A stretch of 63,395 nt of DNA, counting the filler. It is 5 parts of 5 records of this genome, joined end to end, with 100 filler letters (N's around TTAATTAATTAA, not from the genome) between each part and the next. Parts side by side here need not be neighbours in the genome. Positions count along the whole stretch, not along the records: positions 1 to 16,427 come from SRR31156797_3255; 4 more parts are not named here. One strand, 5' to 3'. Shown here piece after piece: positions 680 through 25,467 of this stretch (position 1 is its first letter; each line of letters begins with the position of its first letter). Both the position numbers and the translations under genes were made by a program. The notes beneath the pieces were generated by a model. It had not been told where the DNA came from. It was given only the letters and a program-made list of their open reading frames with translations, and ran no database searches.

Positions 680-2291
680 CTTTAATCCCTTCTAAGTATT
701 CATTTTCAAAATATTTTATTGTACTTAGTACTGGATTTGGTGCTGTTTGACCCAAGCCACATAACGAACTATCTTGTACAACTTCACATAAATCTTTTAG
801 TAAAGAATAATCACTTCTAGTAGCTTCTTTTGCAATAAATTTATCTAGAAGTGAAGTTAATTCGGCAGTTCCTACTCTACAAGGTACACATTTTCCACAA
901 GATTCACTTTGACAAAAGTCCATAAAAAATCTTGCAACTTCAACCATATTAGAGTTTTCATCCATCACAATAAGTCCACCACTTCCCATAATAGAACCAA
1001 TAGATTTTAAAGACTCATAATCAACAGAAATATCAAGCAACTCTTCAGGAATACATCCACCACTAGGACCTCCTGTTTGTATAGCTTTTAGTTTTGTACC
1101 CTTAGTTAGTCCACCACCAACTTCATATATAAGTTCTCTAAGAGTTATTCCCATTGGAACTTCTACTAAACCAGTATTCTTTATATGTCCTGTTAGGGCA
1201 AATACTTTTGTTCCTGGAGATTTTTGGGTTCCTATACTTTTAAACCATTCCCCACCATTTCTAATTATTGGTGCAATATTTGCAAAGGTTTCTACATTAT
1301 TTAAAACTGTTGGTGATTTCCACAATCCATAATCACTTAAATGTGGAGGTTTTTGTCTTGGGTTTCCTCTGTTTCCTTCAATTGAAGTAACTAAAGCAGT
1401 AGCTTCACCACAAACAAAAGCTCCTCCACCAAGTCTAACTTCTAAATCGAAGCTAAAGCCACTTTCCGCAATTTGGTTTCCTAATATCCCTTTGTTTCTT
1501 GCTTGTTTAATAGCTTTATTTAGTTTTTGAACTGCAATTGGATATTCGGCTCTTACATAAATAAAACCTTTGCTTGCTCCACATGCATATCCTGCAAGTG
1601 TCATCCCTTCAATTATTTTATGTGGGTCTGCTTCCATAATTGCTCTATCCATAAAAGCACCAGGGTCACCCTCATCACCATTACAAATAATATATTTTTG
1701 TTCAGCATCAACTTTTGATACAGATTCCCACTTTAATCCAGTAGGGTAACCTCCACCACCTCTACCTCTTAAACCTGAAGTTTTAACCTCATTTAGTACA
1801 TCTTGTGCAGTCATATCATCAAGGGCTTTGTAAAGAGCTTGATAACCATCATAAGCGATATAATCATCAATATCATCGGGGTCTACTATTCCTGCATTTT
1901 CTAATACAATCTTTTTTTGTTTTTTGAAAAAGGCTTGTGAAGTATCGCATTTTTTATCTGCTATTGGAGTTTTTGTGTTTAAAGTTTCAATAAAATCCTC
2001 AGAGTTAGTAGATGAGATTTTACTATAGATAGATGTTCTATTGGTATCTTTATGGTAGTGTGCGACCATAATTCCTTCTGAACATAAACCACTGCACCCA
2101 ACGCCTTTTACTTTACATCTACTTTCTAACTTATTATCTTTTACATCTTTTTTTAGAGTTTTTAATAAATCCTCAGAGTTTAGAGAACAGCATCCACTTC
2201 CTACACAAACTCTTAACTCTTCATGGGAATTTCTTTTTAAGTCTCTTTTCTCTTGGGCTAGTTTTTGTAAGTCTTCCAGTGAATCAATCAT
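672..2291 (-). CDS. hoxF: Diaphorase flavoprotein subunit HoxF (NuoF-like, with N-terminal thioredoxin-like 2Fe-2S domain)
   Basis: SGLRGRGGGGYPTG, CNGDEGDPGAFMDR, GAFVCGEATAL, ESCGKCVPCRVG motifs; N-terminal CVGSGC..GCSGLCSEG. Confidence 0.88.
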   Translation of the reverse strand: MIDSLEDLQKLAQEKRDLKRNSHEELRVCVGSGCCSLNSEDLLKTLKKDVKDNKLESRCKVKGVGCSGLCSEGIMVAHYHKDTNRTSIYSKISSTNSEDFIETLNTKTPIADKKCDTSQAFFKKQKKIVLENAGIVDPDDIDDYIAYDGYQALYKALDDMTAQDVLNEVKTSGLRGRGGGGYPTGLKWESVSKVDAEQKYIICNGDEGDPGAFMDRAIMEADPHKIIEGMTLAGYACGASKGFIYVRAEYPIAVQKLNKAIKQARNKGILGNQIAESGFSFDLEVRLGGGAFVCGEATALVTSIEGNRGNPRQKPPHLSDYGLWKSPTVLNNVETFANIAPIIRNGGEWFKSIGTQKSPGTKVFALTGHIKNTGLVEVPMGITLRELIYEVGGGLTKGTKLKAIQTGGPSGGCIPEELLDISVDYESLKSIGSIMGSGGLIVMDENSNMVEVARFFMDFCQSESCGKCVPCRVGTAELTSLLDKFIAKEATRSDYSLLKDLCEVVQDSSLCGLGQTAPNPVLSTIKYFENEYLEGIKDA

Positions 2292-2767
2292 TTTATCAAC
2301 TCCTCTGCTTGGGCAACTGCATCATCAATCTCTAGGTGTCCAACAGTTTTATCATCATATATAGCAATTGGTGCAAGGGAACAGGCACCAACACATCTTG
2401 CACTTATTAAAGATATGAGGTTGTCTTTTGTTGTTTCACCAGCTTTTATTTTAAATCTATTTTCTATTTTTTCAAGTATTTTATTTGCATTTTTAATATA
2501 ACAGGCTGTACCCATACATACAACAATAGTATGTTCCCCTTTTGGTTTTAATCTAAAATAGTGATAAAAAGTTGCCACTCCAAAAACTTTTGAATATGGA
2601 AGTTTTAATCTTCGAGCAATAAATTTAAGGGTTTCATTTTCTAAATAACCAAAACTTTCTTGGGCAATATGTAAAGCTTCAATCAAGGCACTTCTGTCAT
2701 AATTTAACTTCTTCATTGTCTTTTCAACCATTTTGTATCGGGAATCATTGGGAACTGTAGCTATCAA
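2288..2767 (-). CDS. hoxE: HoxE (NuoE-like 2Fe-2S subunit)
   Basis: VATFYHYF, VCMGTACYIK, RCVGACSLAP; TTG start with AAGGA SD. Confidence 0.85.
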   Translation of the reverse strand: MIATVPNDSRYKMVEKTMKKLNYDRSALIEALHIAQESFGYLENETLKFIARRLKLPYSKVFGVATFYHYFRLKPKGEHTIVVCMGTACYIKNANKILEKIENRFKIKAGETTKDNLISLISARCVGACSLAPIAIYDDKTVGHLEIDDAVAQAEELIK

Positions 2768-3003
2768 AATAGATCCTTTGTAGGTTTTTATAATTATAGT
2801 AAGATTTAGTTACAAAATATCACTAATTTGTTTATTTATTATAAAATAACTACTTTAAAAAATAATAAAATAAAGAAGATTATAAAAGTAAGGAATAAAA
2901 TAAAATGAAAATATTATAAGTAAAATTTATATTAAATTAAGTAGTTTTTTAAGTATTTAGGGGTATTATTATTTTGATTAATTTCATGCATATCAAAAGA
3001 GTA

Positions 3004-3231
3004 TCATAAGAGATTTTTATGATACTCTTTTTTTTGTATTCTCAATATTGCGATATCCCAAACAATGTTTATTAATAGTCCTATAATTAGTGCGTATAAA
3101 ACATTAACACCAAAAATATCTCTATTTTTCAAAGTATTTAAAATGATAACACAAAGGGGCATACTCCAAATAAAAAAACTTTGGGCGATATGAATAACAA
3201 CAGGTTTCATTAAAGTAATTGCAGCAGCCAT
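3004..3231 (-). CDS. Small hydrophobic (two-TM) hypothetical protein downstream of c-di-GMP riboswitch
   Basis: 75-aa ORF, strong AAGGAG SD, two hydrophobic segments. Confidence 0.6.
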   Translation of the reverse strand: MAAAITLMKPVVIHIAQSFFIWSMPLCVIILNTLKNRDIFGVNVLYALIIGLLINIVWDIAILRIQKKEYHKNLL

Positions 3232-3280
3232 AATAATCTCCTTTTATAGGAGTCTCTTTGTTTAATTAGAATATTTTAAG

Positions 3281-3352
3281 TGGGTGCAACCCGACTATCT
3301 ACTTGAGACTCGTGGCTTTCCGTCCCTAAATCACTTTAGGTTTGGCAAAATA
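3281..3352 (-). ncRNA. c-di-GMP-I (GEMM) riboswitch
   Basis: Minus strand GCCAAACCTAAA-GTGA-TTTAGGGACGGAAAGCCACGAGTCTCAAGTAGATAGTCGGGTTGCA matches GEMM consensus (P2 with GYRA loop, GGGAC..AAAG junction, P3 ending GGGTTGC); equivalents of G20, A47 and C92 are present. Confidence 0.88.
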
Positions 3353-3417
3353 ATTATAATCTTATCATAAAAAATTATTTTTGTAAAGTAGTTTACTATT
3401 TTAAGGTGAGTATGGAA

Positions 3418-3693
3418 TTATTTTATATATTTTGTATAAAAATAAATGTGAGGACATTTCTCTTTTATAGTTGAGAGTGTAAATTTCATTTTTTCTAGAA
3501 CAAAATTACAACTTTGTATATTTTCTTCTGTGGGATTTGATATTATCAGTCCTGTACAAAGGGCATAGGTATCATTTAATACATCAATTTCATAAGTTAA
3601 AGAATAATATGTAATCAATTCGCCTTTCATCTTATAGTGTAGATAGTTTGATGAAATAATAGTCAGAGCAACAATTGAAAAAATAAAAATCAA
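3418..3693 (-). CDS. Hypothetical membrane-anchored/exported protein with Cys residues
   Basis: 91-aa ORF, N-terminal hydrophobic stretch; start uncertain. Confidence 0.5.
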   Translation of the reverse strand: MIFIFSIVALTIISSNYLHYKMKGELITYYSLTYEIDVLNDTYALCTGLIISNPTEENIQSCNFVLEKMKFTLSTIKEKCPHIYFYTKYIK

Positions 3694-3992
3694 TCCAATT
3701 TTAAATTTTTTGTTTATAACTTACCCTTTAAAATATAATACTTTTAATTTATCAGAAATGTCATAATAAAGTGCTGATTATGAAATAATAGAAAACAATA
3801 ATAATATAAATATTTAAAGACATTAAATAAATAAGAAAATAAAAAAAATTTTGATTTCATATTATTATTTACAATAGAAGTAGATAAATAATAATTGTAT
3901 AGTTTATTTAAACAGTCAATTATTAAATGCAGTTTAATAAAATATTAGCTTCTAATGAGTATAATAATTTTATTTTTTATTAAAGGGCATTT

Positions 3993-5297
3993 ATGGTAAA
4001 ACAATTTTTATTTTCTATTTCTACAGTAGCCATAATTTTTTCAGGGTGTACGCCTGCAAATAATAGAATAGACACTTCTACACTAACTGAATTACAAAAA
4101 CAACAATTATATAAAACATCTTTACACGAGGCAGTAAGGATTAATGATTTAGAAAAAGTTAAAGAGATATTAGCTGAAGGAAAAGATATTAATAGTAAAG
4201 ATAGGTTTGGTTATACCCCTTTACATCTTGCAGCAAGATTTAATCACTATGATATTGCAAACTATTTAATAGAACACGGTGCAGAAGTAAACTCAAAAGA
4301 TAAATATGGAGATTCTGCATTAATAGATACTACAAGAAATGGATATACAAACTTATCTAAACTTCTAATTTGTAATGGAGCAAAAAGGGATATTTTAGAT
4401 AAGTATGGAATGTCTGCATTACATTATGCTTCAAAAGTAAATGATGTTTTAATAGCAAAAATTCTAAGAGCAAAAGATATTGAACCTTTATGTAATAATA
4501 CTGCAAAAAAACAAGTTCAAAACAAAGAACAGTTTTATAATTTAATCACAATAGACGACTATAATGTTATTAATTCAGCTTCACCAAAAATTTGTGGAGA
4601 TATTCTTGATTTAGATGTGAGACAGGTACAAATAACTTTTGATGGAGGAAGAACAGTTACAAATGCAAAGTTAGATGACAAGAGATGGTGTGCAATCCCT
4701 TCTGAAAAAATCAAAAATGGAAATTATAATGTAATGGCCATGGCAATCAACTCTGCTAGACAAAAGGGTTTAGTAAAAGATGACTTAATCATAAAAGTTG
4801 AAAATATGTTGAGTAATACTTTAAAAAAAGAGTTTGAGAATGATTTAGAAAAATGGAATGCACAGTTTGACGAAGAGAGTTTAACAATAAGATTTAAAAA
4901 TCCTTCTGCTTTATTTGAAAGGGGAAGTATAAAAATCCAAGATAGATTTAAAAATATTCTAGATAGTTTTCTTCCAAGATATATAAATATTTTAAAAGAC
5001 TATAAGTCAAAAATATCAAGTGTACATATTGAAGGACACACTTCTTCAAGATATCGTTCAGCTTCAACTGATGAAGAAAAATTTGAGAAAAATAAAGTTC
5101 TTTCTCAAAAAAGAGCAGATTTAATTCTTAAATATCTAAACGAAAATAATGACCCTTTAATCTCAGAAAACTTGAACTTTATAAAAGAAAAATTCATTGC
5201 AATAGGAAAATCTTCTTCTGAACTAATTTACAAAGAAGATGGAAGTGAAGATTATGATTTATCTAGACGAGTTGAATTTAAGATAGAAAGTAAATAA
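3993..5297 (+). CDS. Lipoprotein: ankyrin repeats + Ig-like domain + OmpA/MotB-type peptidoglycan-binding domain
   Basis: Lipobox FSGC; GYTPLHLAA, GMSALHYAS ankyrin motifs; C-terminal IEGHTSS...LSQKRA...SRRVEF. Confidence 0.85.
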   Translation: MVKQFLFSISTVAIIFSGCTPANNRIDTSTLTELQKQQLYKTSLHEAVRINDLEKVKEILAEGKDINSKDRFGYTPLHLAARFNHYDIANYLIEHGAEVNSKDKYGDSALIDTTRNGYTNLSKLLICNGAKRDILDKYGMSALHYASKVNDVLIAKILRAKDIEPLCNNTAKKQVQNKEQFYNLITIDDYNVINSASPKICGDILDLDVRQVQITFDGGRTVTNAKLDDKRWCAIPSEKIKNGNYNVMAMAINSARQKGLVKDDLIIKVENMLSNTLKKEFENDLEKWNAQFDEESLTIRFKNPSALFERGSIKIQDRFKNILDSFLPRYINILKDYKSKISSVHIEGHTSSRYRSASTDEEKFEKNKVLSQKRADLILKYLNENNDPLISENLNFIKEKFIAIGKSSSELIYKEDGSEDYDLSRRVEFKIESK

Positions 5298-5303
5298 ACT
5301 ACT

Positions 5304-8300
5304 GTGGATAAAATTCAAAATATAATAAAAAGTATTAGAGAAGACCTTTGTGGTAATAAAGACTTTTCTCTATCTTTAAAAGATTTTATTGATTATAATC
5401 CAAATATTTCACAAACATATATAACTCTTTTTCAAGAGGGTGTTAAACCTATTAGGTGGGGTTCTAAAAAACAAACTTTAGAAGAGACTATCAAAAGAGA
5501 TATCTATAAACTAAAAAGTCATTCAAGATTTTCCTCTTTTGATGTAGAAGATAATAAAAAGTGTAGAATTCTTTTTGAGATGGTAACTGATGAAAAGCCA
5601 TGCAACATAAGAAACCTAACAAGTATTAAAATGCACTCTTCAAATAGATTTGAACCAGGAGTTACAGGATTAAAGTATACCTATGAAGGCATAACAAGAT
5701 TTTTTATGCCGACAGATGGGTATATCAAATCAATAATGAATGTAAAACAACTATTAAATTTCTTATCTAAACAGTGTGGCATAGCTAAAAAAACAAATCA
5801 AATTAGTGAACGAGCAAACTTGATGCGTAGAGAAGCTATTAAATACACTGCTTTAGAGTCAATTGCATATATAAGTTATGAAAATGAAGCATATAAGTTA
5901 GAAAGAGGATATCCTGTTCCTTTAGAGTTTTCAAAACAAATTGTTGAAGACAAACTTTTTAAAAGTCTTGATTGGCTCATAAATAATATGAATGATGATG
6001 GAAGTTTTTTATACTTTTATGACCCTTATGAAGATTCAGTAGTTGATTATCTTCATCCAGATATGAAAAACCCTTTATATAACAATATTCTAAGACATAG
6101 TGGTGGAACAATATCATTACTTAGAGGATACGAACTAAGTAAAAATAAAATCTATTTAGAAAGTGCAAAAAAATCTATTGATTTTTTTATATCAACTTTT
6201 AAAGAACACACTTATAAAAATGACTATGCTTGTTTCCCATTTTTTAACAAAAAATCAAAACTAGGTGGTGCAGGGATTGGTTTAGTTGCAATGATGCACT
6301 ACTATATTCACACACAAGATGAAAAGTATAGAAAATATTTAGATGGACTAGTAAGACATATCTTAAGTAGAGTTGATGAGCAAGGTGAGATGATAGGTTA
6401 CTACATACATCCAAAATTTAACAATGGAAATCCTATTATTAATCCAAGTGATGAAGTAAAAAAAGAGTTATTTTCTTTTTATTATCCAGGAGAAGCCTTA
6501 TTAGGACTTGCTTTATATTATTTAAATATAAAAAACTTAGATGAAAGCTTAAAAAAAGATATTCTATCAAAAAGTGAAAAAGCATTAGATTTTTTAGTTG
6601 ACGTTCGACCTACAAAGTATAGTTATATGTTTAAGTCTTTGCCTTCAGACGCTTGGCTTATGCAAGCAATAGAAGAATGGGTAAAAGTAGAAGGACTAAA
6701 GAAACAAAGTTATATAGATTTTGTTTTTGATGATACAAAGCAGATGTTAAGACATATGTATAGAGATGAAAATACACTAGATGTAAACAAAGACTACATT
6801 GGTGGTTTTTATTATAACTATGGAGATCATGTATATCATGACGCATCAAGATGTGAAGGTGTTATTAGTGCATACTATTTAGCAAAATATTTAAATGATG
6901 AAGAAAAAGCAAGTTGGATAATGAACAGTATGATGTTAAGTGCAAAAGGTTTAATGAAAACTTTTCACGATGAGAAATCGAACTATTGTCATATAAATCC
7001 TAAAAAAGCATTACATAGCTTTAGGTTTAAACTAACTAGACAATGGGTTAGAGTAGATTCTGTTCAACATGCAGCTTGCTTTTTTTCTAGACTTTTACCA
7101 ATATATTCTGAGTGCGAGAAAGCATTAGAAAATTACTCATTGATTTGTGGAAAATACCAAATATTAGAAGAGATAGATAAAGCAGGTTATAGCACTGTAT
7201 ATAAAGTTGAAGATATATATTCAAAAAAAGTTTATGCTTTAAAACATATAACCCATCCAAGATTTATGCAACTTGTAGAAAATGAACAAAAAGCCTTAGA
7301 AATAGTAAATGAACACTTACCTTTGAAGTTCTATGAAAAACTTGTTTCTGGAGGAAATGTATATTTTCTATTTGATTATGCAAAAGGAAAAAACCTAAAA
7401 AAACAAGTTGAAACAAAGGGTGCTTTTAGCCAAGATGAGGTAGAAAAATTTACTTTTGATATATTAAATACTTTAGAGTTTATAGCAGAGAAAAAACTTT
7501 TACATCTAGATTTAAAACCTGCAAATATTTTAAAGTATAAAGATTCTTATGCTTTGATGGATTGGGGAACTTCTCAAAGGATTTGGGTAAGTAATTCTGT
7601 TCACTTAAAAGGAAACCCTATTTATATAGCTCCTGAATACTATTTTGGAAAAAGAAATATTAAAAGTGAGTTATACTCTTTAGGATGTTCTATATATTTT
7701 CTTTTAGTTGGAAAACATATTTTTGGTTTACGAAAAAGAGATAATCTAGCAAAAAAAGTCTATCTACATCTTTATATAAAACCCGATTTATCGCAAATAA
7801 AATCAAAAAAAATGAGATATTTACTTTATAGACTTTTAGATAAAAACCCTTTTACTAGAGCAAACTTTGATGAAGTTAAACAGATACTAAAAGGTAAATA
7901 TGAAGATTTTGAGTACAAACAAGAAAAGATTTTAATTGACCTAAACGATGAGTATAAACTTTATGAAAGAATGGCAAACGATTCAGTTGCTTTTGCGCAA
8001 AATAAATATGCAAGATATTTTTTAGAAAAAGATAAAAATACTGCAATGTTATGGTTAGAAAAAGCTTCACAAGCTTCATATTCTATTGCACAAAATAAAT
8101 TAGCCTATATATATTTTACAGATAAAAAAGATTTAAATAAATCATTTTATTGGTTTAAAAAAGCAGCATTAGATGAACACGATATGGCATTGTATTATAT
8201 GGGTGTTTTTTATGAAAATGGGTATGTTGTTGAAAAAAATAAAGATATAGCAATCAAATACTATAAAAGCTCTGCAAATAAAGGTTATATACCTGCTTAT

Positions 8301-8342
8301 GAAAGATTGAATCAATTAGGAATTTATAATGAGTTCTTCTAA
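5304..8342 (+). CDS. Four-domain protein: AMMECR1-like + (alpha/alpha) toroid + Hanks-type Ser/Thr kinase + Sel1 repeats
   Basis: FEPGVTGL..FFMPTD (AMMECR1-like); DGSFLYFYDP..YNNILRHSG..KLGGAGIGL..YYPGEALLGL..RVDSVQH (toroid); ALKH, HLDLKPANIL, DWG, YIAPE (kinase); WFKKAA, YYMGVFYENGYVVEKN (Sel1). GTG start. Confidence 0.75.
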   Translation: MDKIQNIIKSIREDLCGNKDFSLSLKDFIDYNPNISQTYITLFQEGVKPIRWGSKKQTLEETIKRDIYKLKSHSRFSSFDVEDNKKCRILFEMVTDEKPCNIRNLTSIKMHSSNRFEPGVTGLKYTYEGITRFFMPTDGYIKSIMNVKQLLNFLSKQCGIAKKTNQISERANLMRREAIKYTALESIAYISYENEAYKLERGYPVPLEFSKQIVEDKLFKSLDWLINNMNDDGSFLYFYDPYEDSVVDYLHPDMKNPLYNNILRHSGGTISLLRGYELSKNKIYLESAKKSIDFFISTFKEHTYKNDYACFPFFNKKSKLGGAGIGLVAMMHYYIHTQDEKYRKYLDGLVRHILSRVDEQGEMIGYYIHPKFNNGNPIINPSDEVKKELFSFYYPGEALLGLALYYLNIKNLDESLKKDILSKSEKALDFLVDVRPTKYSYMFKSLPSDAWLMQAIEEWVKVEGLKKQSYIDFVFDDTKQMLRHMYRDENTLDVNKDYIGGFYYNYGDHVYHDASRCEGVISAYYLAKYLNDEEKASWIMNSMMLSAKGLMKTFHDEKSNYCHINPKKALHSFRFKLTRQWVRVDSVQHAACFFSRLLPIYSECEKALENYSLICGKYQILEEIDKAGYSTVYKVEDIYSKKVYALKHITHPRFMQLVENEQKALEIVNEHLPLKFYEKLVSGGNVYFLFDYAKGKNLKKQVETKGAFSQDEVEKFTFDILNTLEFIAEKKLLHLDLKPANILKYKDSYALMDWGTSQRIWVSNSVHLKGNPIYIAPEYYFGKRNIKSELYSLGCSIYFLLVGKHIFGLRKRDNLAKKVYLHLYIKPDLSQIKSKKMRYLLYRLLDKNPFTRANFDEVKQILKGKYEDFEYKQEKILIDLNDEYKLYERMANDSVAFAQNKYARYFLEKDKNTAMLWLEKASQASYSIAQNKLAYIYFTDKKDLNKSFYWFKKAALDEHDMALYYMGVFYENGYVVEKNKDIAIKYYKSSANKGYIPAYERLNQLGIYNEFF

Positions 8343-10707
8343 TTTAACTTTTACATTAAAAGAGATGGAGTCACTTGTAAATGGAAAATGGATAAATCTG
8401 TCCCCCAATCTTTTAATAAACGATTTTGTTCACATACTAAGTCAAGTGAAACAAGGTGATATTTTTGTTGTATCTTATGAATCTTGGTACAATAAAAAAA
8501 ACAGTAATGAAGACGAAATCCCACAAGCAATAAAAAATGGTGCAAGTGCATTATTCGTTGAAGAGCAAACAGATATCTCAAATATCAATATTCCTGTATT
8601 TGTAGTAAAAAACAGTTATGAAGCTTTGAAAAAGTTAGCAAAACACTCTTCTTTGAACTCAAAAGCAAAAAAACTTTTAATAACAGGAAGTTACGGTAAA
8701 ACAGGTTTTAAAAATCATCTTTATACTCTAAGTAATCAAAAAAACATATATGCAAGACTTCATAGTTCTAATAGATTTGCAACAACTTTATGCACTTTAG
8801 TTTCTATAAAAAAAGACACAAAACTTTTTTTAATAGAAGTTCCAATTAGAAGAAAAGATAGAATTCAAAAAAGCTCAAAGTATATTAAACCCAATATGTG
8901 TGTTATCACATCAATTGGACATGAACATATAGAGATACATGGTTCAATAGAAGAGATAATAAGACAAAAATGTTTAGTTGCAAGTAGCTTAAAAGAGGGT
9001 GAAAAAGTTATAATTCCAGGAGATTCTGAGTATACAAAACTTTTAAAAAAAGAGTTGAAAAAATATAAAGGAATAGTAGTTTTAACTTTTGGTGAAAGTG
9101 AAAATTGCAATGCTCAAATCCTTAACAAATATTTTATAGATAACAAATGGGTAATAACTGCAAGAATTGAGTTTGAGATTATTCAGTATGAAGTTCATTT
9201 TGTAGAAGAGCATGCACCTTCAAGTTCTGTTGCAGAACTATTGTGTTTAAAACACATGGGAGAAGATATTTATTCTTGTGCAAATAAATTTATTAAGTGT
9301 AAAAACTATAAAAGTAGTGGAAAACTATACAAAATAGAGTATAAAAACAAAGAGTTACTTCTTTATGACCAAAGCTCTAGAGGTGGAGTTGAAGGTTATA
9401 AATCTTTTTTTAAAACTATAAGAAGACTAGACTTTAAAAAAAACAGTAGAAAAATTGTTTTAAGTTCAGAGTTTGTTGATTTAAAAGATGGAGAGGATAA
9501 GTTTTTAGATATTCAAAGATTCCAAGAGTTGATTACAAAAGCAGAAATAACTCAATTTTATGGAGTTGAAAACTTTAATCATCATGAAGAAGTTATTAGT
9601 GATAAAACCATATATAAAGGTAATTACCCAAATCCAAATGAACTAGCAGAGAGTTTTTTTGATACTTTAAAAGATGGAGATATTATTTGTATAAAAGGTA
9701 TCTTTGAAAGTAATATTAACAAAGTAGTAAAAAAGCTTTTATCTAGTAGTAAACCTTTACCACGATATTTAATAAAAGAGTTTGATACTAACACTTTAAA
9801 AGGGTGTGAGGTTTTAAGTATAAAACATAAAGAGCTTTTTAAAACCTATTTAAAAGAAAAAAAAGTAGCTTTATGGTGTCAGTTTTTCCCTTTCTTATTC
9901 TCTTTTTCAAAATCAAAATCTAAAAAAATCTTAGTAAAAAAAGATGAAAGTTCACTAAGTGTTTTTTACCTAAGAAATATTAATAAAGCAGAAAAAATCT
10001 CTTTACAATTGTTTTTTATCCCTTTTCCTTTTAATTTTGAAGTATTAAAAAAGAGTTTAAATATAGTAAAACAATTTAATAAACAATCCCAAGTTACAGT
10101 AACTTGGTTAGATGATGAAGATATTTCAAATATAAAAAAACATAAAGAGTTTGCAGAAAATATTGAGTTTATACAAAAAGAGTATGAGTTTATTTTTGAT
10201 TCATCGTTATATTATAATCTTGCAGGTGGAAAATTAAGAAGTTTAAGGCAGCAAATAAATTGGGTAAATAGATTAGAAGATGTTAAAATTGTACCTTATA
10301 AAAAAGAATATTTAGATGATGCCTTAAAACTATATGACAAATGGAAAAAGTTTCAAGAAGATAAATATGATTTAATAACAGATGAAAATTATACTAAAAA
10401 TGCATTGTTTTTTTATGAAAGCTTTAAAGATGAATTAAAAGGTTTAGTTGTTTTAATAAAAGGTGAATTAAAAGCTTTTGGTTTTTATGGAAATATAAAT
10501 GAAACTACAATAAATATGTTTATTGCAAAGAGTGATTTAGAAATAAAAGGTTTACAACAGTTCTTAAAATACAATATTTTGTTGAATTCAAAAGATTTAA
10601 TTGTAAATGATGGAAGTGCAGAAAGTCAAGGTTTGTTTGATTCTAAAAAGAAATTAAATCCACTTTTTTTAAAAAAAGTTTATAAAGCAAGATATAATTT
10701 TATTTAA
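8329..10707 (+). CDS. MurF-like Mur ligase fused to DUF2156 (aminoacyl-tRNA-dependent transferase/LPG-synthase C-terminal-like) domain
   Basis: ITGSYGKT P-loop, VITSIGHEHIE, DIICIKG; C-terminal YEFIFD..LAGGKLRSLRQQIN..KGLQQFL..GLFDSKKKLNP. Confidence 0.75.
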   Translation: MSSSNLTFTLKEMESLVNGKWINLSPNLLINDFVHILSQVKQGDIFVVSYESWYNKKNSNEDEIPQAIKNGASALFVEEQTDISNINIPVFVVKNSYEALKKLAKHSSLNSKAKKLLITGSYGKTGFKNHLYTLSNQKNIYARLHSSNRFATTLCTLVSIKKDTKLFLIEVPIRRKDRIQKSSKYIKPNMCVITSIGHEHIEIHGSIEEIIRQKCLVASSLKEGEKVIIPGDSEYTKLLKKELKKYKGIVVLTFGESENCNAQILNKYFIDNKWVITARIEFEIIQYEVHFVEEHAPSSSVAELLCLKHMGEDIYSCANKFIKCKNYKSSGKLYKIEYKNKELLLYDQSSRGGVEGYKSFFKTIRRLDFKKNSRKIVLSSEFVDLKDGEDKFLDIQRFQELITKAEITQFYGVENFNHHEEVISDKTIYKGNYPNPNELAESFFDTLKDGDIICIKGIFESNINKVVKKLLSSSKPLPRYLIKEFDTNTLKGCEVLSIKHKELFKTYLKEKKVALWCQFFPFLFSFSKSKSKKILVKKDESSLSVFYLRNINKAEKISLQLFFIPFPFNFEVLKKSLNIVKQFNKQSQVTVTWLDDEDISNIKKHKEFAENIEFIQKEYEFIFDSSLYYNLAGGKLRSLRQQINWVNRLEDVKIVPYKKEYLDDALKLYDKWKKFQEDKYDLITDENYTKNALFFYESFKDELKGLVVLIKGELKAFGFYGNINETTINMFIAKSDLEIKGLQQFLKYNILLNSKDLIVNDGSAESQGLFDSKKKLNPLFLKKVYKARYNFI

Positions 10708-10751
10708 AGAGATAAATGATAAAGTTATTATTTTAAAATGAAAGGCATAAA

Positions 10752-11771
10752 ATGAGTAATCTATTTTCAAATATTTTAAAAAGTAAGTTTTTATTACTAA
10801 GTATCTTTTTTATTTTTAATCTTTATGGAAATATTGAAGTAAAACTAAACAAGTTAACTGCTACTATCATATTTACAGAGTCTTTGATGGATAAAGCAGG
10901 AAGACCTAAAGAGTTAAAAAAGATATATCTCGAAAGTTATAAAGATGACAATAGATTAAAAAATATTTTAAGAGAAACAAAACCCTTATACAAGAAATTA
11001 AGAGTATCAAAAATCTATAATCACCCAAAAACAGAAAGACTTTTTTCTGCAATTATGATAGAAAGTACATTTACAAATGATATAAATACTTTAGAATCAA
11101 AAATATTAAGTTATAAACTAGCTGTCTCTTCAAAAATGATAAAAAACTATTTCTCTATGCTTAAAGAGTTTGCACCTATTTATGATGAGTTAATTTGGAA
11201 ACCAAATTATCAAAAACTTTCAGAAGCAAAAGCACAAATAGAAGGTTTGATTGAGCAATTAAAAAAATCAAATGTACAAAGAAAAGTAGAAAACTTCTAT
11301 CATATAAAAGAGGGTGAAGCAAGACCTTTTTATGTAAATCTTTATCCTATTCCAAATGCAAAAGGTTTTAAAGCTTTAAGAATAGAAAATACTGCACCAG
11401 TTGGAATCATAATAAACAACAAAAAACTAAACTTAAAATGGTTTTTTAGTGCAGTAATTTTCCACGAGCAATGTCATGAGTATTTTGCACAATATAAAGA
11501 AAACATTAGACAAATGATTAAAAAAAATAAAAAATCAAGTGCAAAAGCATTTTTTAGAACTTTTGATGAAAGCTTACAAACTTCTATAGGTGCAGGATAT
11601 ACATATTATACATTGAGAGGAAAACTTTCTAAAGGTAAATGGTATAATAATAAAGTATATGATAACTTAGCAAAACGAATTCTACGAGAAGTAAGTATTT
11701 ATCTAAATAATAATAAACAAATTGATGAAGAATTTATTAAAAAAACAATTCAAGAATATAAGAAAATTTAA
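10752..11771 (+). CDS. Exported putative zinc metallopeptidase (HEXXH)
   Basis: Signal-like N-terminus; IFHEQCHEYF followed by FDESLQTSIG (possible third-ligand Glu). Confidence 0.55.
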   Translation: MSNLFSNILKSKFLLLSIFFIFNLYGNIEVKLNKLTATIIFTESLMDKAGRPKELKKIYLESYKDDNRLKNILRETKPLYKKLRVSKIYNHPKTERLFSAIMIESTFTNDINTLESKILSYKLAVSSKMIKNYFSMLKEFAPIYDELIWKPNYQKLSEAKAQIEGLIEQLKKSNVQRKVENFYHIKEGEARPFYVNLYPIPNAKGFKALRIENTAPVGIIINNKKLNLKWFFSAVIFHEQCHEYFAQYKENIRQMIKKNKKSSAKAFFRTFDESLQTSIGAGYTYYTLRGKLSKGKWYNNKVYDNLAKRILREVSIYLNNNKQIDEEFIKKTIQEYKKI

Positions 11772-11780
11772 AGGGCAAAA

Positions 11781-13676
11781 ATGAAGCAAACTTTAGAAAA
11801 TATATCAGTTGTAATACCTTGTTATCCACCTGATATAAAGAGTTTAAAAGAGAACTCTATTCCATCATTTAAAAACTCAACTTATAATCCTTTGGAGATT
11901 ATTGTAGCTTTAAGTGAAACAAATGATGAAGATGCCTTAAATTTAGAAAATGAGTTAAATAAACTATACGATTTTAAAATCAAAATATCAAATACCCCAG
12001 AACAAAAATATGCAGGTGAAAATAGAAACAGAGGGGCAGAAATCTCACAAGGTGAGATAATTGTATTTTTTGATTCTGATGATGAAATACATCCTCAAAA
12101 GTTAGAAATCACTGATTATATATTTAAAAAGTATAAACCTAAAATGTTTATGCACCATTGGCAAGGGTATTCAAGAAGATACCAAGAATATGATAAAGAG
12201 AATTTAGAGATAGTAACTTCTGATACTTTGAGTGAATTCACTTATGGAAAAAATGAAAACCCAAAGTGGATATTTGTAGATACTTATGCAAAAAGTGAAT
12301 GGGGACAAAACAAAAGTCATCCTCACCATGGACATGTTGCAATAGAAAGATCTGTTTTTGATGAGATTCAATACACTAACAAAAAAAGAGGTCAAGATGT
12401 TGAGTTTTGTCTAAAAGTTCTTAAAAAATACAATAACACAGTTTTTGCAAATGTAAAACTTGTAAACTATATCATGGACGATAGTAAAAAGATTTTAGAG
12501 CCAATTGTAAAATGGTGGGAAGATGACTATAAAGTTGAAGTAACTGAAATAAAAAATGACCCAAATCATAAGTATGCAATCTTAATGTTAGATGCCTTTA
12601 CTGATGAAAACTATAAACAATACAACGAATATAACTCTTTACTGTCAAAGGCAAGTGCTGATGAAGTATGGTCTTACTATCCAGTTATGGGCAAAAAATA
12701 TAAAGCAGATGATAAACTAGTTAGAAAAGCAAGTGTTATTGAGCCTTATTTACTTTATGAATACTTTAGAGACAACAATATCAAGCATAAAATTTGGTAC
12801 AAAAACTCACTTTTTATTTTAAATGATTCATTATATAGAATCACAAATTATAAGGTTTATAAAGAGGATTTAACAAACCTAAATATAGCTTGTTTAAGAG
12901 AGAGTTGGTCTCATCCATTTTTTGGATTTTTAGAGATAATTTTAGAAAAAGCAAACGGTAAGTTATGTAAACCAAATATGGGAACATTGAGAAATGCTGG
13001 ATGTATGAACAAACTTTATGGTTTAAGGGAGTTATATTCAAAAAGAGATGAATATATACAAGATATTGTAATTCCTTACAATATAGCTCCATATCAATAT
13101 GATGTTTTTTTATCTTTTTTAAGAGATTATTTTGGAAAAGAGTTAGTTTTCAAGATTGATTGTATCCAAGAAGGGCGTGGAGTTATTTTCAAAAACATAG
13201 AAAAGTCACTTCAACTAGATAAAATTGGACCAATTTTAGATAAACAAGGTCAAAAATCAAAAGAGATTTTTATAACACCAGCATTTACTATAGCTGAAGA
13301 GTTTAGGTGTTATTTCACAAAAGATAAACAAAATAATGTAACTGTTTATTCCATAAAACAAAGAAACAACAAATCATCAAAAGAGGAACTTTTCAAAACA
13401 GATAACATCCATATTTATAAAAACATTGATGTTTCATGGAGAGAGATTAAGTTTGGTAGTGATGATTTTATAAAAGCTTCAAATATAGCAAAAGATATGG
13501 TTTCTATGATGACTTATACATCAGGAAGTATTGAGTTTGGTATAACAAAAGAGGGCAAAATTGTATTCTTTGAAGTGAATCAAATGGCAGGACCTTTACC
13601 ATTTGTTGGTGAAGATTTAAAAAATATGAATAAATACTATAAAGCAATTTTTGATCAAATGTTTGAAGATGCATGA
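11781..13676 (+). CDS. GT2 glycosyltransferase fused to C-terminal RimK-like ATP-grasp domain
   Basis: ISVVIPCY, NRNRG, FFDSDD, GQDVEF (GT2); LVFK..QEGRGV..EEFRCY..IEFG..FFEVNQMAG (ATP-grasp). Confidence 0.75.
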   Translation: MKQTLENISVVIPCYPPDIKSLKENSIPSFKNSTYNPLEIIVALSETNDEDALNLENELNKLYDFKIKISNTPEQKYAGENRNRGAEISQGEIIVFFDSDDEIHPQKLEITDYIFKKYKPKMFMHHWQGYSRRYQEYDKENLEIVTSDTLSEFTYGKNENPKWIFVDTYAKSEWGQNKSHPHHGHVAIERSVFDEIQYTNKKRGQDVEFCLKVLKKYNNTVFANVKLVNYIMDDSKKILEPIVKWWEDDYKVEVTEIKNDPNHKYAILMLDAFTDENYKQYNEYNSLLSKASADEVWSYYPVMGKKYKADDKLVRKASVIEPYLLYEYFRDNNIKHKIWYKNSLFILNDSLYRITNYKVYKEDLTNLNIACLRESWSHPFFGFLEIILEKANGKLCKPNMGTLRNAGCMNKLYGLRELYSKRDEYIQDIVIPYNIAPYQYDVFLSFLRDYFGKELVFKIDCIQEGRGVIFKNIEKSLQLDKIGPILDKQGQKSKEIFITPAFTIAEEFRCYFTKDKQNNVTVYSIKQRNNKSSKEELFKTDNIHIYKNIDVSWREIKFGSDDFIKASNIAKDMVSMMTYTSGSIEFGITKEGKIVFFEVNQMAGPLPFVGEDLKNMNKYYKAIFDQMFEDA

Positions 13677-13688
13677 AGGGTGAGTGAG

Positions 13689-15548
13689 ATGGAAGAAACG
13701 ATTTTTATACAAATAGCAAGCTACAGGGATCCAGAGTGTAGAAATACAGTAAAAGATATTTATGAAAAAGCACAAAATCCTGAGAATATTTTTATTGGTA
13801 TTAATTGGCAATACCATGAAGATGATGACTTTGATGCAATATATGAAGACCAACCATATTCTAAAAATGTAAGAATAGCAAGATTTCATTGTACTGAGTC
13901 AAAAGGTGTTTGTTGGGCAAGAGCTGAAACTCAAAAACTATATAAAGACGAGAAATACACTTTACAACTTGATTCACATATGATATTTATCAATAATTGG
14001 GATATAGAACTACTTGCAATGTATAAACAGTTACTTGATAAAGGTATTGAAAAACCAGTTATTTCTCACTATCCACCAAACTATACTTTAGACGGAAAGT
14101 TTGATAACTGGCAAGGTAAAATGGCTCCTTATATTAGAGAGAGTGAAAAGATTATCTATTTTAAATTAACAGGTTACCAAATCAAACAAGATAATTCTCC
14201 TTTGATACCTTCTGCTTGTATTGCAGGGGGAATGTTTTTTGCCGATGCAAGTTGTATAAAAGAGATTCCTTATGACCCAAATATCTATTTTTATGGAGAA
14301 GAGATAACTTTAAGTACAAGATTTTGGACACATGGTTGGGATATTTATAACCCTTCAAAAATTGTATTATGGCATCTTTTTAAATCAGAAGAAAAAAATG
14401 GTACAAAAATAGAAACAAGAAAAATAGATACTCACTGGTACGACCAGCCAGATGAATATGAAAGATTAAATCAGCGTTCTATAAAGAGAACAAGACACTT
14501 TTTTGGTACAGAATTTAGTAACGACAAAGGTGTAACTATTGATTTAGATAAATATAAATTAGGAACAAAAAGAACACTTCATCAATATGAACTTTTTGCA
14601 GGTGTAGATTTTTATCAGTTAGAAAGAACACAGTTTGCATCTTCAGGGATTGTATTTGAAAACAAAGAAGAGAACAAAACTGCATATAAACAAGAAAATG
14701 AATCTTTTTATGAGATAAAAAAATATGATAAAGATAGCATAAAATCAGTTTATGATTTCATCTCTAAGTTAGATATAAAAAAAGTTGCAAGCCTAATTTC
14801 GTATGGGTATGATAACTTTGTAAATATCTACAACAAAGATATTGAATATATTGGGCTTGATTTGTTTGAAAATAATTGTGAACAAAATAGATATTTCTAT
14901 AGACATATAAAAAATGTTTATCATTCTCAAGTAAACTTTTTCAAAGAACCATTGCCTTGTGTTGATTTACTTTTAGCGGTAGATTTATTTGAAAAAATAG
15001 ATAAATATGAGATATCAAAAATTCTTTTAAGTGCTTCAAAATCTGGGATAAAATATGTTGCAACAAGTTTAAATAAAGATGATAAAAAGCTTGATTCTCT
15101 TCCAAATACTTGTTTTTCTATCCCTTTTACAGATAAAAAGGTTTTAAATTTCTGGAATATTGAAGATTTAAAAATTTATTTTTACTATTTAACAGGAAAA
15201 GAAGATTCTTTGAGAAAACAAATTATTCCTGTTTTGAAAAAGCAATTAAAAATTGTTGAAGAGAGTATGAAAGGATTAGAAAAAGATTACAAAAATATTA
15301 TTTTTTATATTTTTAGTTTAAGAAACTCTAAAGAAGCAAGAAAAATATACAATAAACCTGAAGTTCAAGAAAAATTATTATTTGATATGTCAAAGGGAAA
15401 AAATAGTATTAATTATATTTTCAACCTAAGATATTTCTCAAATCTTGATATTATAAATCGAGATTTTCCTTCAATAAAAAAAGAGGATTCAGATTTCGTT
15501 ACATCCCTAATTTGCGAATATTTACGAATTTATTATAAAAGTTTGTAG
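13689..15548 (+). CDS. GT60/'GlcNAc' family (Skp1 Gnt1-like) protein GlcNAc transferase with degenerate SAM-methyltransferase-like C-terminal domain
   Basis: IFIQIASYRDPEC, SKGVCWAR, LQLDSHMIF, PYDPNIYFYGEEI..RFWTHGWDIYNP; C-terminal YIGLDL..VDLLLAVDLF. Alternative GTG start at 13680. Confidence 0.8.
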   Translation: MEETIFIQIASYRDPECRNTVKDIYEKAQNPENIFIGINWQYHEDDDFDAIYEDQPYSKNVRIARFHCTESKGVCWARAETQKLYKDEKYTLQLDSHMIFINNWDIELLAMYKQLLDKGIEKPVISHYPPNYTLDGKFDNWQGKMAPYIRESEKIIYFKLTGYQIKQDNSPLIPSACIAGGMFFADASCIKEIPYDPNIYFYGEEITLSTRFWTHGWDIYNPSKIVLWHLFKSEEKNGTKIETRKIDTHWYDQPDEYERLNQRSIKRTRHFFGTEFSNDKGVTIDLDKYKLGTKRTLHQYELFAGVDFYQLERTQFASSGIVFENKEENKTAYKQENESFYEIKKYDKDSIKSVYDFISKLDIKKVASLISYGYDNFVNIYNKDIEYIGLDLFENNCEQNRYFYRHIKNVYHSQVNFFKEPLPCVDLLLAVDLFEKIDKYEISKILLSASKSGIKYVATSLNKDDKKLDSLPNTCFSIPFTDKKVLNFWNIEDLKIYFYYLTGKEDSLRKQIIPVLKKQLKIVEESMKGLEKDYKNIIFYIFSLRNSKEARKIYNKPEVQEKLLFDMSKGKNSINYIFNLRYFSNLDIINRDFPSIKKEDSDFVTSLICEYLRIYYKSL

Positions 15549-15550
15549 TG

Positions 15551-15569
15551 GAAACTTTATAGAAACTTT
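15551..15569 (+). promoter_or_regulatory. Tandem GAAACTTT direct repeat with 11-bp period upstream of adhesin gene (OmpR/PhoB-type box candidate)
   Basis: GAAACTTT-ATA-GAAACTTT at 15551 and 15562. Confidence 0.4.
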
Positions 15570-15614
15570 TTTTATATATAGTTAAGCTATAGGAATATAC
15601 TTAAAGGCTTAACT

Positions 15615-16427
15615 ATGACACTTATAATCAGACACATTAACGGCGAGATAGAAGAATTAAATGTTACAGGAAATATGGAGATTAAACCTCTTGAAGGGGA
15701 ACAACTATATTTTTTAGGTGCAGATAAATATTCGTTTTCATTAGCAGATGGCGAAGAAACAATCAAACTTAATTTAGTAGAGGGTACACAAAGATTTGAA
15801 ATAACTCTTGACCAGATGGCAGAGTTAATTAAAAACAATAAACCTGATGATATTTTTGCCTTAAATACTGCACTTGGTGTGTCTGCCACAGTTGACGGTG
15901 AAAAAGAGATTATGGATGCTGTTAATAATCCTGACTTCGAAAGTGGAGAGATTATTAATGCATTAAAAGAGAGTCTAGCTTTAAGTACTTTGGCTGATAT
16001 GGATGGGTCAATCATAGATAATTTTGGGTCTTTAGCAGAATATTTAGAGGCTGCAGCAGCTGGTGAAGAGTCAAGTGATGGGTCTTTGTTTATTGAAGAA
16101 GATAGAAATCAAGAGGTAACACCTGCAGAGGAGACTGAGAGAAGCGAAAGAATTGAAACAGAAGAAGATTCAACTACAACAGAAGATACCACGACTACAG
16201 AAGATACCGAAACTACAGAGGATACTGAAACTCCTGAAGATACAGAAACTATAGAAGATACTACTACTGATGAAGATACTACAACTTCTGAAGATACAAG
16301 TTCAGATGAAGATACATCAACAACAGAAGATACAAGCTCTGACGAAGACACAGAAACAATAGAAGATACAGAAACAACTGAAGATACAAGTTCAGATGAA
16401 GATACAGGTACGACTGAAGATACAAGC
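15615..16427 (+). CDS. N-terminal part of a LapA-like/T1SS adhesin (retention region + acidic Thr-rich repeats), truncated by contig end
   Basis: No signal peptide; LEAAAAG resembles the di-alanine LapG cleavage motif; followed by an acidic linker and EDTxxx repeats. Confidence 0.65.
16164..16427 (+). repeat. 18-bp/6-aa tandem repeat (EDTxxx), 14 full units plus a partial one, running into contig end
   Basis: EDSTTT EDTTTT EDTETT EDTETP EDTETI EDTTTD EDTTTS EDTSSD EDTSTT EDTSSD EDTETI EDTETT EDTSSD EDTGTT EDTS. Confidence 0.95.
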
Positions 16428-16527
16428 NNNNNNNNNNNNNNNNNNNNNNNNNNNNNNNNNNNNNNNNNNNNTTAATTAATTAANNNNNNNNNNNNNNNNN
16501 NNNNNNNNNNNNNNNNNNNNNNNNNNN
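16428..16527. other. Artificial contig linker
   Basis: N44-TTAATTAATTAA-N44 (stops in all six frames); composition changes across it. Confidence 0.98.
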
Positions 16528-25367: not shown

Positions 25368-25467
25368 NNNNNNNNNNNNNNNNNNNNNNNNNNNNNNNNN
25401 NNNNNNNNNNNTTAATTAATTAANNNNNNNNNNNNNNNNNNNNNNNNNNNNNNNNNNNNNNNNNNNN
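25368..25467. other. Artificial contig linker
   Basis: N44-TTAATTAATTAA-N44. Confidence 0.98.

Follow-up and report, generated by a model that had tools for sequence, protein, structure and literature searches.

What are six genes for predicted glycosyltransferases, amide ligases, a kinase and exported proteins doing directly ahead of a gene for an acidic, threonine-rich repeat protein? The question is raised by positions 3993 to 16427 of a 63,395-base stretch of DNA (here called the window), which is joined from five contigs; the whole cassette, genes p1 to p7, sits on contig 1 (positions 1 to 16427, ∼27% GC). Our answer, to which we give a probability of about 0.6, is that the region is a cytoplasmic modification system for the repeat protein p7, with O-glycosylation dependent on p6, a member of glycosyltransferase family 60 (GT60). 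The genomic link between the enzymes and the repeat protein is well supported; we infer the chemistry, the substrate and the route by which p7 would be exported. Any particular amide chemistry is much less likely than a GT60-dependent modification system as such.

The seven genes all lie on the plus strand, with intergenic gaps of 6, −14, 44, 9, 3, and 66 bp. The order is as follows: p1 (3993 to 5297), a lipoprotein with ankyrin, Ig-like and OmpA/MotB-type domains (Pfam, NCBIfam, PADLOC); p2 (5304 to 8342), an AMMECR1-like domain with an (alpha/alpha)6 toroid, a Hanks-type Ser/Thr kinase and Sel1 repeats (Pfam, PDB profile, Foldseek); p3 (8329 to 10707), a MurF-like Mur ligase fused to a DUF2156 domain of the MprF C-terminal/FemX-like type (Pfam, NCBIfam); p4 (10752 to 11771), an exported HExxH protein and putative zinc metallopeptidase without a named family (HEQCH motif, hydrophobic N terminus); p5 (11781 to 13676), a family 2 glycosyltransferase (GT2) fused to an ATP-grasp ligase (Pfam, structural model, Foldseek); p6 (13680 to 15548), a GT60-like enzyme with a degenerate methyltransferase-like domain and a helical C-terminal extension (PF11397); and p7 (15615 to 16427), the 5' part of a large, acidic, Thr-rich repeat protein (translation), cut by the contig end. 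Hydrophobic segments are absent from p2, p3, p5 and p6, and export signals are present in p1 and p4. The catalytic motifs are intact: DxH in p6, DSDD and ExN in p5, the GKT P-loop in p3, and HLDLKPAN and APE in the p2 kinase. An exact-sequence cluster lookup with the seven window proteins gave no match (the first query was off by one codon).

The repeat protein p7 consists of an N-domain (residues 1 to 140), the motif LEAAAAG and then (EDTxxx)n, with no hydrophobic segment. The EDTxxx units form a plus-strand tandem array of 18 bp (6 codons) at 16163 to 16427, where Tandem Repeats Finder reported a period of 18 bp over 16163 to 16426, with 7.5 to 10.7 copies and 68 to 77% matches. Contig 1 ends at 16427 inside this array, with the N linker beginning at 16428; the right-hand boundary is therefore an assembly break, not a biological end. 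The first-pass annotation of this DNA had described co-oriented, tightly spaced genes leading to a signal-less protein with LEAAAAG and (EDTxxx)n repeats, and both descriptions agreed with the gaps above and with translation, hydrophobicity and repeat analysis. Its domain calls for p1 to p6 were likewise recovered by Pfam, NCBIfam, PDB-profile and Foldseek comparisons.

To ask how far the link between such enzymes and repeat proteins extends, related loci (given L numbers here) were surveyed with two anchors. The GT60 survey covered the best 80 of 382 genome matches. Open reading frames (ORFs) were crude, taken from stop to stop in the longest frame, and high-GC loci yielded many spurious frames; since choosing the frame of repeats by third-position GC was unreliable, it was replaced by taking the longest directly adjacent same-strand ORF. 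In 22 of the 80 loci, a T/S-rich, low-complexity repeat protein is encoded by the longest ORF lying on the strand of GT60 and no more than 500 bp from it (18 upstream, 4 downstream). Further cases lie 0.3 to 7.6 kb away or on the opposite strand (L001, L013, L033, L058, L037, L007, L011, L043, and L057). For comparison, 33 of 686 crude ORFs of at least 200 aa in the GT60 loci contain a T/S-rich window, 13 of those 33 being the adjacent ORFs, so that nonadjacent ORFs account for 20 of 673. The adjacent repeat ORFs reach at least 1595 aa and are mostly on the same strand within 100 bp. Their repeat units vary by lineage (PTDTPA, PTETPA, PVTTTEA, PTTTGAPT, PTTTSA, EPPVTT, VTETAT, KTPSPTHTNAPT, and SDPDTDPS), most with an acidic residue, and this lineage specificity argues for repeated independent retention. 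The pairing of GT60 with a repeat protein occurs in the free-living genera Magnetospirillum, Azospirillum, Noviherbaspirillum and Pseudoduganella; cultured isolates with the pair come from these four genera (Magnetospirillum in L030 and L061, Azospirillum in L048, Noviherbaspirillum in L023, and Pseudoduganella in L014) and from Novispirillum (L013). In four Oxalobacteraceae loci (L015, L020, L025, and L028), the ORFs upstream of GT60 combine PTDTPA/PTETPA units with a second repeat of ∼45 to 50 aa, rich in Gly, Asn and His (GGNNGHGNGDQDAPGNSG...).

The second survey used the N-terminal part of p2 in a metagenome scan and covered the best 80 of 165 relatives, the AMMECR1-toroid loci. Long (DT)n or (DS)n ORFs were found in at least 20 of these 80 loci, usually beside the AMMECR1-toroid gene (L152 is ambiguous). 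A MurF-like gene follows downstream on the same strand in 24 loci, and a MurF-DUF2156 fusion is encoded in 5; a kinase was found in 7, Sel1 in 6, GT60 in 3, and a p1-like ankyrin-OmpA lipoprotein in 1 (L090). None of the 80 encodes p4, p5 or the p6 C-terminal domain. Two secreted families also recur: a ∼280- to 350-aa HExxH family in 13 loci, exemplified by L098 (11782 to 12621) and L113 (6219 to 7268) and, in the GT60 survey, by L002 (2598 to 3557), and an unnamed family of ∼400 aa in 12 loci (L111, 11851 to 13050). Relatives of two enzyme groups of the window are thus each associated with T/S-rich repeat proteins.

Three loci show how the cassette is put together. L001, a metagenome-assembled genome (MAG) labeled Pseudomonadota, contains the best GT60 relative (50% identity); there, the C-terminal end of an EDT-repeat protein is followed by homologues of p4 (37% identity), p5 (56%) and p6. 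The EDT-repeat protein thus stands on the opposite side of p4-p5-p6 from p7 in the window. After the L001 GT60 gene come a gene for a protein of 599 aa and then tat/his genes; the 599-aa ORF (5640 to 7439, minus strand) is convergent on GT60, has no Pfam match and perhaps contributes another component. In L103, a metagenome contig of 17 kb, an AMMECR1-toroid gene is followed by a MurF-like gene, a gene for a Ddl-family ligase (8581 to 9636; Dala_Dala_lig_C, 93 bits), a hydrolase-TPR gene and an ORF of at least 2064 aa, so that the ligase lies between the MurF-like gene and the giant DT/EDT protein. This pairing of Ddl-like and MurF-like genes mirrors that of cell wall synthesis but is found in an adhesin locus. 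The giant ORF starts with a p7-type N-domain, 47% identical to that of p7, and keeps the EAAAA motif (EAAAAD, against EAAAAG in p7); it continues with ∼200 consecutive DT dipeptides and long EDT-rich repeats, and its Gly/Asp-rich repeats look RTX-like by eye, with no Pfam match at 1e-5. It is the single match to the p7 N-domain among the 80 AMMECR1-toroid loci. The cassette is thus made of two separable modules, p2-p3 with p1 (M1) and p4-p5-p6 (M2): M1 without M2 in L103, M2 without M1 in L001, and both together in the window each adjoin a p7-like protein. A dedicated cassette, as initially proposed, is strongly favored by the comparison in that both enzyme modules are linked to Thr/acid-repeat proteins; it does not hold as one unit, since the modules also occur apart.

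Other loci vary the combination. In L002 (a Gallionellaceae MAG), a toroid, a kinase-Sel1 protein, an HExxH protein and GT60 are encoded in a row. The high-GC metagenome locus L133 (3 to 10488) encodes an SD/DT-repeat ORF, CorA, a dehydrogenase-like ORF, AMMECR1-toroid, a protein combining PIG-L (GlcNAc de-N-acetylase) with a methyltransferase and, convergent to the other genes, a fusion of GT60, methyltransferase and PGA_cap of 1428 aa. Deacetylation by PIG-L would free an amine on the sugar, and amide ligases could make use of it. Together with a fusion of p2-like and Mur-ligase parts (P0131, below), L002 and L133 connect the components of the cassette. In the M1 locus L102 (14186 to 19261), genes for a GNAT protein, another Mur-ligase protein (1045 aa) and a radical-SAM/SPASM enzyme come after the MurF-DUF2156 gene, and these neighbors suggest further chemistry in some versions of M1.

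The central enzyme of the proposal is p6, which matches PF11397 (GT60) at 215 bits against a cutoff of 21 (E 2.3e-63). The motif D98-S-H100 is invariant in 20 sequences; DxH is described in the available portions of PMC7185993 as a variant of the metal-binding DxD motif common to GT27 and GT60. The characterized GT60 members covered there and in the accessible parts of PMC8724618 use polypeptide acceptors, and the latter source describes protist GT60 enzymes that begin mucin-type O-glycans with GlcNAc on Thr-rich repeats, as well as Skp1 glycosylation. For bacterial GT60 we found no functional publication in the openly accessible literature. The transferase activity of p6 is predicted, and what points to a protein as its acceptor is the gene neighborhood. 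Many GT60 relatives come from MAGs of Rickettsiales. The C-terminal half of p6 aligns with the Methyltransf_25 domain of GT60-methyltransferase relatives of ∼520 aa, whose Gly-rich S-adenosylmethionine (SAM) loop (DAGCGD, motif I) is lost in p6 (14640 to 15548); loss of this loop, together with a helical tail of ∼120 residues, marks a GT60 subgroup of ∼620 aa (the window, L001, P0002, and P0016). Because the SAM-binding loop is gone, the domain is probably inactive. The methyltransferase-like label given earlier to this part of p6 thus stands as homology and not as activity.

The neighboring enzymes p5 and p3 carry the predicted amide-forming domains. The N-terminal half of p5 is a GT2 domain (Glycos_transf_2, 55 bits, with a DSDD motif) closest in NCBIfam to TuaG and a glucuronosyltransferase. 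The C-terminal 385 aa gave a structural model with a mean confidence (pLDDT) of 81.4, for which Foldseek returned 380 matches at E ≤ 0.001; the matches listed were all ATP-grasp proteins (Ddl, VanG, synapsin, RimK, and MdnB/C) with a probability of 1.0. TM-scores were only 0.33 to 0.51, because the domains are differently posed. In 11 sequences of this half, E352-x-N354 and K212 are invariant; by motif we take them to be the Mg-ATP ligands and the central-domain lysine. The domain is rare, with 10 matches among 5.8 billion clusters, 9 of them stand-alone proteins of ∼370 aa. In p3, Mur_ligase_M was matched at 71 bits against a cutoff of 24, with the P-loop GSYGKTG. The nearest equivalog model is that of murF (TIGR01143), at 121.7 bits against a cutoff of 288.6, and all equivalog models fall far below their cutoffs; p3 is therefore classified by sequence as a member of the Mur-ligase superfamily, not as the housekeeping MurF. 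Its C-terminal half matches PF09924 (LPG_synthase_C/DUF2156) at 38.8 bits against 27.5, over 143 of 298 model positions.

For p4, the evidence consists of HEQCH at residue 238 and a hydrophobic N-terminal segment (residues 4 to 22). Pfam, NCBIfam and PADLOC gave no match, and a feature search pointed to unnamed clusters (0.96) and DUF4932 (0.93), to be taken as a lead only. The p4 type was found only in the window and in L001. A single family for p4 and the HExxH proteins of the L002 type was considered and rejected: there is no cross-match between them at E 1e-4, and they are therefore kept as two families.

The M1 protein p2 contains a kinase domain (Pkinase, 109 bits) and Sel1 repeats by Pfam. 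A 29-sequence profile of residues 1 to 612 matched the PDB entries 1zq7 (E 1.3e-8), 1wsc (8e-4) and 1vaj (1e-3), which we take to be AMMECR1-family structures, and Foldseek matched the fold of residues ∼27 to 205 to the same three entries. No Pfam family named AMMECR1 was matched by p2 at E ≤ 10; the AMMECR1-like domain is thus divergent. We know of no resolved function for the AMMECR1 domain. The AlphaFold model of the N-terminal part (pLDDT 92.5) contains an (alpha/alpha)6 toroid that resembles glucose/cellobiose 2-epimerases and GH76 enzymes by Foldseek. A lanthipeptide synthetase-like p2 was considered, given the combination of kinase and toroid and weak LANC_like matches in relatives; it was rejected, since sugar epimerases and GH76 rank first and no LanC is among the Foldseek matches listed. 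The p2 family (881 matches) includes fusions to Mur ligase, PGA_cap, GT4 and YheCD-type ATP-grasp domains; in P0131 (1964 aa) a p2-like protein is fused with a Mur ligase.

The lipoprotein p1 has a lipobox-like N terminus, ankyrin repeats (Ank_2, E 5e-39), an OmpA domain (37 bits) and a Big_13 match below the cutoff. Its last 160 residues resemble the peptidoglycan-binding domain of ZorB, with PADLOC ZorB2 matched through that C-terminal domain only (E 5.6e-51) and the NCBIfam ZorB2 model covered at positions 40 to 196 of 210. Weak NCBIfam matches link the ankyrin region to Legionella Ank effectors. In L090, the gene for a p1 homologue of 50% identity precedes that for the p2 homologue. Upstream of p1, on the opposite strand, are genes for NuoG/F/E-like iron-sulfur flavoproteins.

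How would the repeat protein leave the cell? The related loci suggest two routes, a type I secretion system (T1SS) and two-partner secretion (TPS). In L014 and L023, genes for a T1SS ABC protein (TIGR03375, 765 bits against a cutoff of 693) and an HlyD adaptor (TIGR01843, 335 bits against 209) lie directly upstream of the repeat and GT60-methyltransferase genes. The repeat protein of L013 carries RTX repeats (E 7e-50), that of L048 has weaker RTX matches, and L061 has a T1SS-143/BapA-like domain below the cutoff. TolC-like, ABC and HlyD genes stand beside the AMMECR1-toroid gene in L105, L111 and L098; homologues of both ABC and HlyD proteins are present in 9 of the 80 GT60 loci and in 8 of the 80 M1 loci, and a TolC-like-OmpA gene occurs in 5 M1 loci. 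The DT proteins of L145, L149 and L160 have a TPS domain, with a TpsB gene in each locus, and TpsB homologues were found in 9 of 80 M1 loci. The DT protein of L135 is a beta-helix protein and that of L143 an RHS protein. Thus, in several cases, the repeat proteins adjoining these enzymes are predicted from sequence to be exported by T1SS or TPS. In a Methylococcales MAG (L080, 214 to 7926), a Slam-like outer membrane protein and a FecR/CsgG-like protein precede a repeat protein of 815 aa and a fusion of GT60 with a 2-oxoglutarate (2OG)-Fe(II) oxygenase; the repeat protein combines SDPDTDPS and PDPTPDPDPV repeats with a weak Slam-lipoprotein C terminus. The fusion hints that, by analogy with Skp1 in protists, proline may be hydroxylated and GlcNAc added.

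Is p7 then a LapA-type adhesin, as the first-pass annotation called it? It is large, repeat rich and without a signal peptide, with a poly-Ala-Gly motif after its N-domain, and related loci have T1SS genes and a BapA/LapF-like domain. In contrast to LapA/LapD/LapG systems, the models of the LapA/BapA retention module gave no match to p7, neither lapD nor lapG was found on the 16-kb contig with Pfam and NCBIfam, and the p7 C terminus lies beyond the contig end. The label "LapA-like" therefore lacks sequence support. Of the partners proposed at the outset for a neighborhood check (T1SS, lapD/lapG and Thr-rich adhesins), T1SS genes and Thr-rich repeats were seen in related loci. The p7 N-domain itself gave no Pfam match at E ≤ 10, only one irrelevant NCBIfam match at E ≤ 1, no PDB-profile match and a best Atlas feature score of 0.76, which is meaningless. 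No homologue was found among proteins of 476 to 2000 aa, a range that longer adhesins exceed, and none was found in the genomes behind L001 and L002.

From these data a working scheme can be drawn. Soluble p6 would transfer GlcNAc from UDP-GlcNAc onto Thr/Ser hydroxyls of the repeats in the cytoplasm, a role proposed because of the protist GT60 members and the gene neighborhoods. The GT2 half of p5 would extend the sugar, and its ATP-grasp half may form an amide bond, either to attach an amino acid or to make a dipeptide. In p3, the MurF-like half may place an amino acid or dipeptide on a carboxylate, either a repeat Asp/Glu side chain or a sugar acid; the MurF-like and Ddl-like pair of L103 points to the addition of a dipeptide, as happens with peptidoglycan precursors. 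The DUF2156 half would contribute an aminoacyl group from aminoacyl-tRNA. p2 would recognize the repeat and may phosphorylate it. p7 itself would be adhesin-like and secreted, with a type I system as its probable exporter, and p4 and the peptidoglycan-binding lipoprotein p1 would act in processing or anchoring after export. The lack of hydrophobic segments in p2, p3, p5 and p6 and the export signals of p1 and p4 agree with this scheme.

The same enzymes could be read differently. Mur ligase, ATP-grasp, FemX-like and GT2 proteins make up, in the accessible portions of PMC4431377, the classic toolkit for synthesizing peptidoglycan, teichuronopeptide, cyanophycin and O-antigen. The p5 GT2 half is nearest TuaG and a glucuronosyltransferase, the Ddl-like gene of L103 adjoins a MurF-like gene, and the domains to which AMMECR1-toroid proteins are fused (PGA_cap, GT4 and YheCD-type ATP-grasp) typically belong to polymer synthesis. 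The enzymes might thus build a free or lipid-linked envelope glycopeptide or poly-amino acid polymer (teichuronopeptide-, poly-gamma-glutamate- or peptidoglycan stem-like), with the repeat protein nearby as a fellow surface function. We consider this unlikely. Pfam and NCBIfam revealed no flippase, polymerase, polyprenyl-phosphate priming transferase or polymer exporter among the seven genes, and membrane segments are missing from the enzymes. Across lineages, T/S-rich repeats are tied to each of two unrelated enzyme families, which mere colocation would not predict, and in the annotated loci the homologues did not fall mostly into lipopolysaccharide, capsule or peptidoglycan loci lacking an adhesin link, the pattern that was named at the outset as counting against an adhesin-modification system. 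The characterized GT60 enzymes in the available parts of PMC8724618 and PMC7185993 also act on polypeptides. Chance must be weighed as well: the adjacency of p7 might be accidental and the survey signal an artifact of low complexity, assembly breaks at repeats and the recounting of related genomes. The crude ORFs with spurious high-GC frames, the related or duplicate loci and the restriction to the best 80 loci per scan would favor this, yet the repeat ORFs are long and on the same strand, have RTX, TPS, beta-helix or RHS domains outside the repeats, and differ in repeat unit between lineages; nonadjacent ORFs of at least 200 aa rarely have such windows (20 of 673, as above), and the p7 N-domain recurs beside M1 in L103. 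An artifact is accordingly very improbable.

With their eukaryote-like domains (ankyrin, Sel1, Hanks kinase and GT60), these proteins could serve a host-associated bacterium as effectors that modify host proteins, p7 being unrelated. The weak Legionella Ank matches of p1, the many GT60 relatives in Rickettsiales MAGs and the GC content of the contig (∼27%) agree with this idea. We hold it to be quite improbable, since p1 carries both a lipoprotein signal and a domain that binds peptidoglycan, the genes are packed into a single tight operon that ends at p7, the same families stand beside repeat proteins in free-living genera, and contig 1 shows no effector-type secretion system or secretion signal. 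The resemblance of the first genes to antiphage defense, Zorya-like or kinase based, is barely credible as an explanation and was rejected. It arose from PADLOC ZorB2 for p1, mad6 for p2 (E 6.5e-32) and many PD-T4-6 models for the p2 kinase, along with NCBIfam ZorB2 and MADS6, but these are domain-level matches to generic domains and fall far under the cutoffs (136 against 400 bits for ZorB2 and 74 against 460 bits for MADS6). Moreover, p1 lacks the N-terminal membrane part of ZorB and is a lipoprotein, PADLOC gave no ZorA match among the p1 neighbors, no ZorA/C/D or MADS partner was seen, and p3 to p7 have no PADLOC match.

Several points weigh against a GT60-dependent system that modifies p7. 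Each enzymatic step is predicted rather than observed. p7 is cut by the contig end, and its secretion signal, size and adhesin nature lie beyond the sequence at hand. No directly adjacent repeat ORF was found in 58 of 80 GT60 loci, and ∼60 of 80 AMMECR1-toroid loci have no (DT)n/(DS)n ORF; many of the surveyed contigs are only 3 to 6 kb. The loci are not phylogenetically independent and include near duplicates (L149/L150, L160/L161, and L133/L134). With GT60 in only 3 of 80 M1 loci and no p4, p5 or p6 C-terminal domain in any, the two modules may act unrelatedly on one kind of protein. In L001, the repeat protein ends without RTX repeats, and the MAG, which is possibly incomplete, contains no close homologue of p2, p3 or the p7 N-domain. 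To our knowledge, a heavily glycosylated T1SS substrate has no well-studied precedent. The AMMECR1-toroid fusions described above for polymer synthesis belong here too.

How does the proposed system compare with known ones? In the available portions of PMC3794999 and PMC8561734, the dedicated, soluble glycosyltransferases SdgA and SdgB of staphylococci put GlcNAc on hydroxyl residues in the long, acidic dipeptide repeats of the SD-repeat surface adhesins ClfA, SdrC/D/E and Pls. The DS/DT repeats of L080, L113, L133 and L162 resemble SD repeats, and L080 matches ClfA/Sdr models through its repeats. SdgA and SdgB belong to a glycosyltransferase family other than GT60. Their substrates, in contrast, are Sec exported, sortase anchored and Gram positive, and Mur-ligase, FemX-like, ATP-grasp, AMMECR1 or kinase partners are not described there. 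Serine-rich-repeat protein (SRRP)/accessory-Sec loci couple cytoplasmic O-GlcNAc initiation and extension on Ser/Thr repeats to export of a giant adhesin. The likeness to these loci is by analogy only: Pfam and NCBIfam gave no match to GtfA/GtfB, Asp or SecA2/SecY2 among the seven proteins, the initiating enzyme here would be a GT60 of the GT-A fold, and export in related loci would be by T1SS or TPS. A Gram-negative analogue of serine-rich-repeat loci, as first suggested, is thus apt as an analogy and not as membership, and the system would function like the SdgA/SdgB and SRRP loci while being a member of neither.

The closest enzymatic relatives are the protist GT60 enzymes, Dictyostelium Gnt1 on Skp1 hydroxyproline and the mucin-type enzymes of Trypanosoma cruzi and Dictyostelium. 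p6 shares PF11397 and DxH with them, and L080 combines GT60 with a 2OG oxygenase as in the Skp1 pathway; p6 differs in its extra domains, and its proposed targets are secreted bacterial proteins. The peptidoglycan precursor pathway likewise brings together MurF-like, Ddl-like/Ddl-fold ATP-grasp and FemX/MprF-C-like domains. Here, however, p3 falls well short of murF (121.7 against 288.6 bits), MurC/D/E, MraY and MurG are absent, and the genes are linked to a repeat protein instead of a dcw cluster.

The other four contigs of the window follow linkers of the form N44-TTAATTAATTAA-N44 at 16428 to 16527, 25368 to 25467, 38044 to 38143, and 54352 to 54451. G+C content across the five contigs ranges from ∼26% to 58%, with contig 4 at ∼58%; a single bin or sample may therefore have contributed contigs from more than one organism.

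A wider reading goes beyond this locus, and we put it forward tentatively, as doubtful in its full form. A widespread, undescribed bacterial modification would, in the cytoplasm, provide giant secreted proteins with (DT)n, (DS)n or EDT repeats with GT60 mucin-type O-GlcNAc and with peptidoglycan stem-like branches made by MurF-like, Ddl-fold and FemX-like enzymes, with AMMECR1 plus toroid as the repeat-recognizing core enzyme. Acceptors of the branches would be Asp/Glu or sugar carboxylates, and the peptide branches could let OmpA-type proteins such as p1, or cell wall transpeptidases, hold the adhesin on the wall. In the openly accessible literature, we found no publication that treats AMMECR1 together with a Mur ligase or ATP-grasp partner, DUF2156 together with Mur ligase, glycosylation of T1SS/RTX substrates or modification of Asp-Thr repeats. 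The system could extend the known theme of dedicated repeat-adhesin modification, and its Mur-ligase/AMMECR1 half could be categorically new. Repeats break short-read assemblies, which may explain why the link was overlooked.

If the proposal is correct, GT60, whose function is so far known only from protists, would start mucin-type O-GlcNAc glycosylation on proteins that Proteobacteria secrete by T1SS and TPS, and dedicated adhesin glycosylation of the SRRP and SD-repeat kind would come to include other enzymes and other routes of export. The Mur-ligase, Ddl-fold and FemX-like types, textbook enzymes of the cell wall, would also act on proteins, and the AMMECR1 domain would gain its first concrete substrate class, (Asp-Thr)n repeats.

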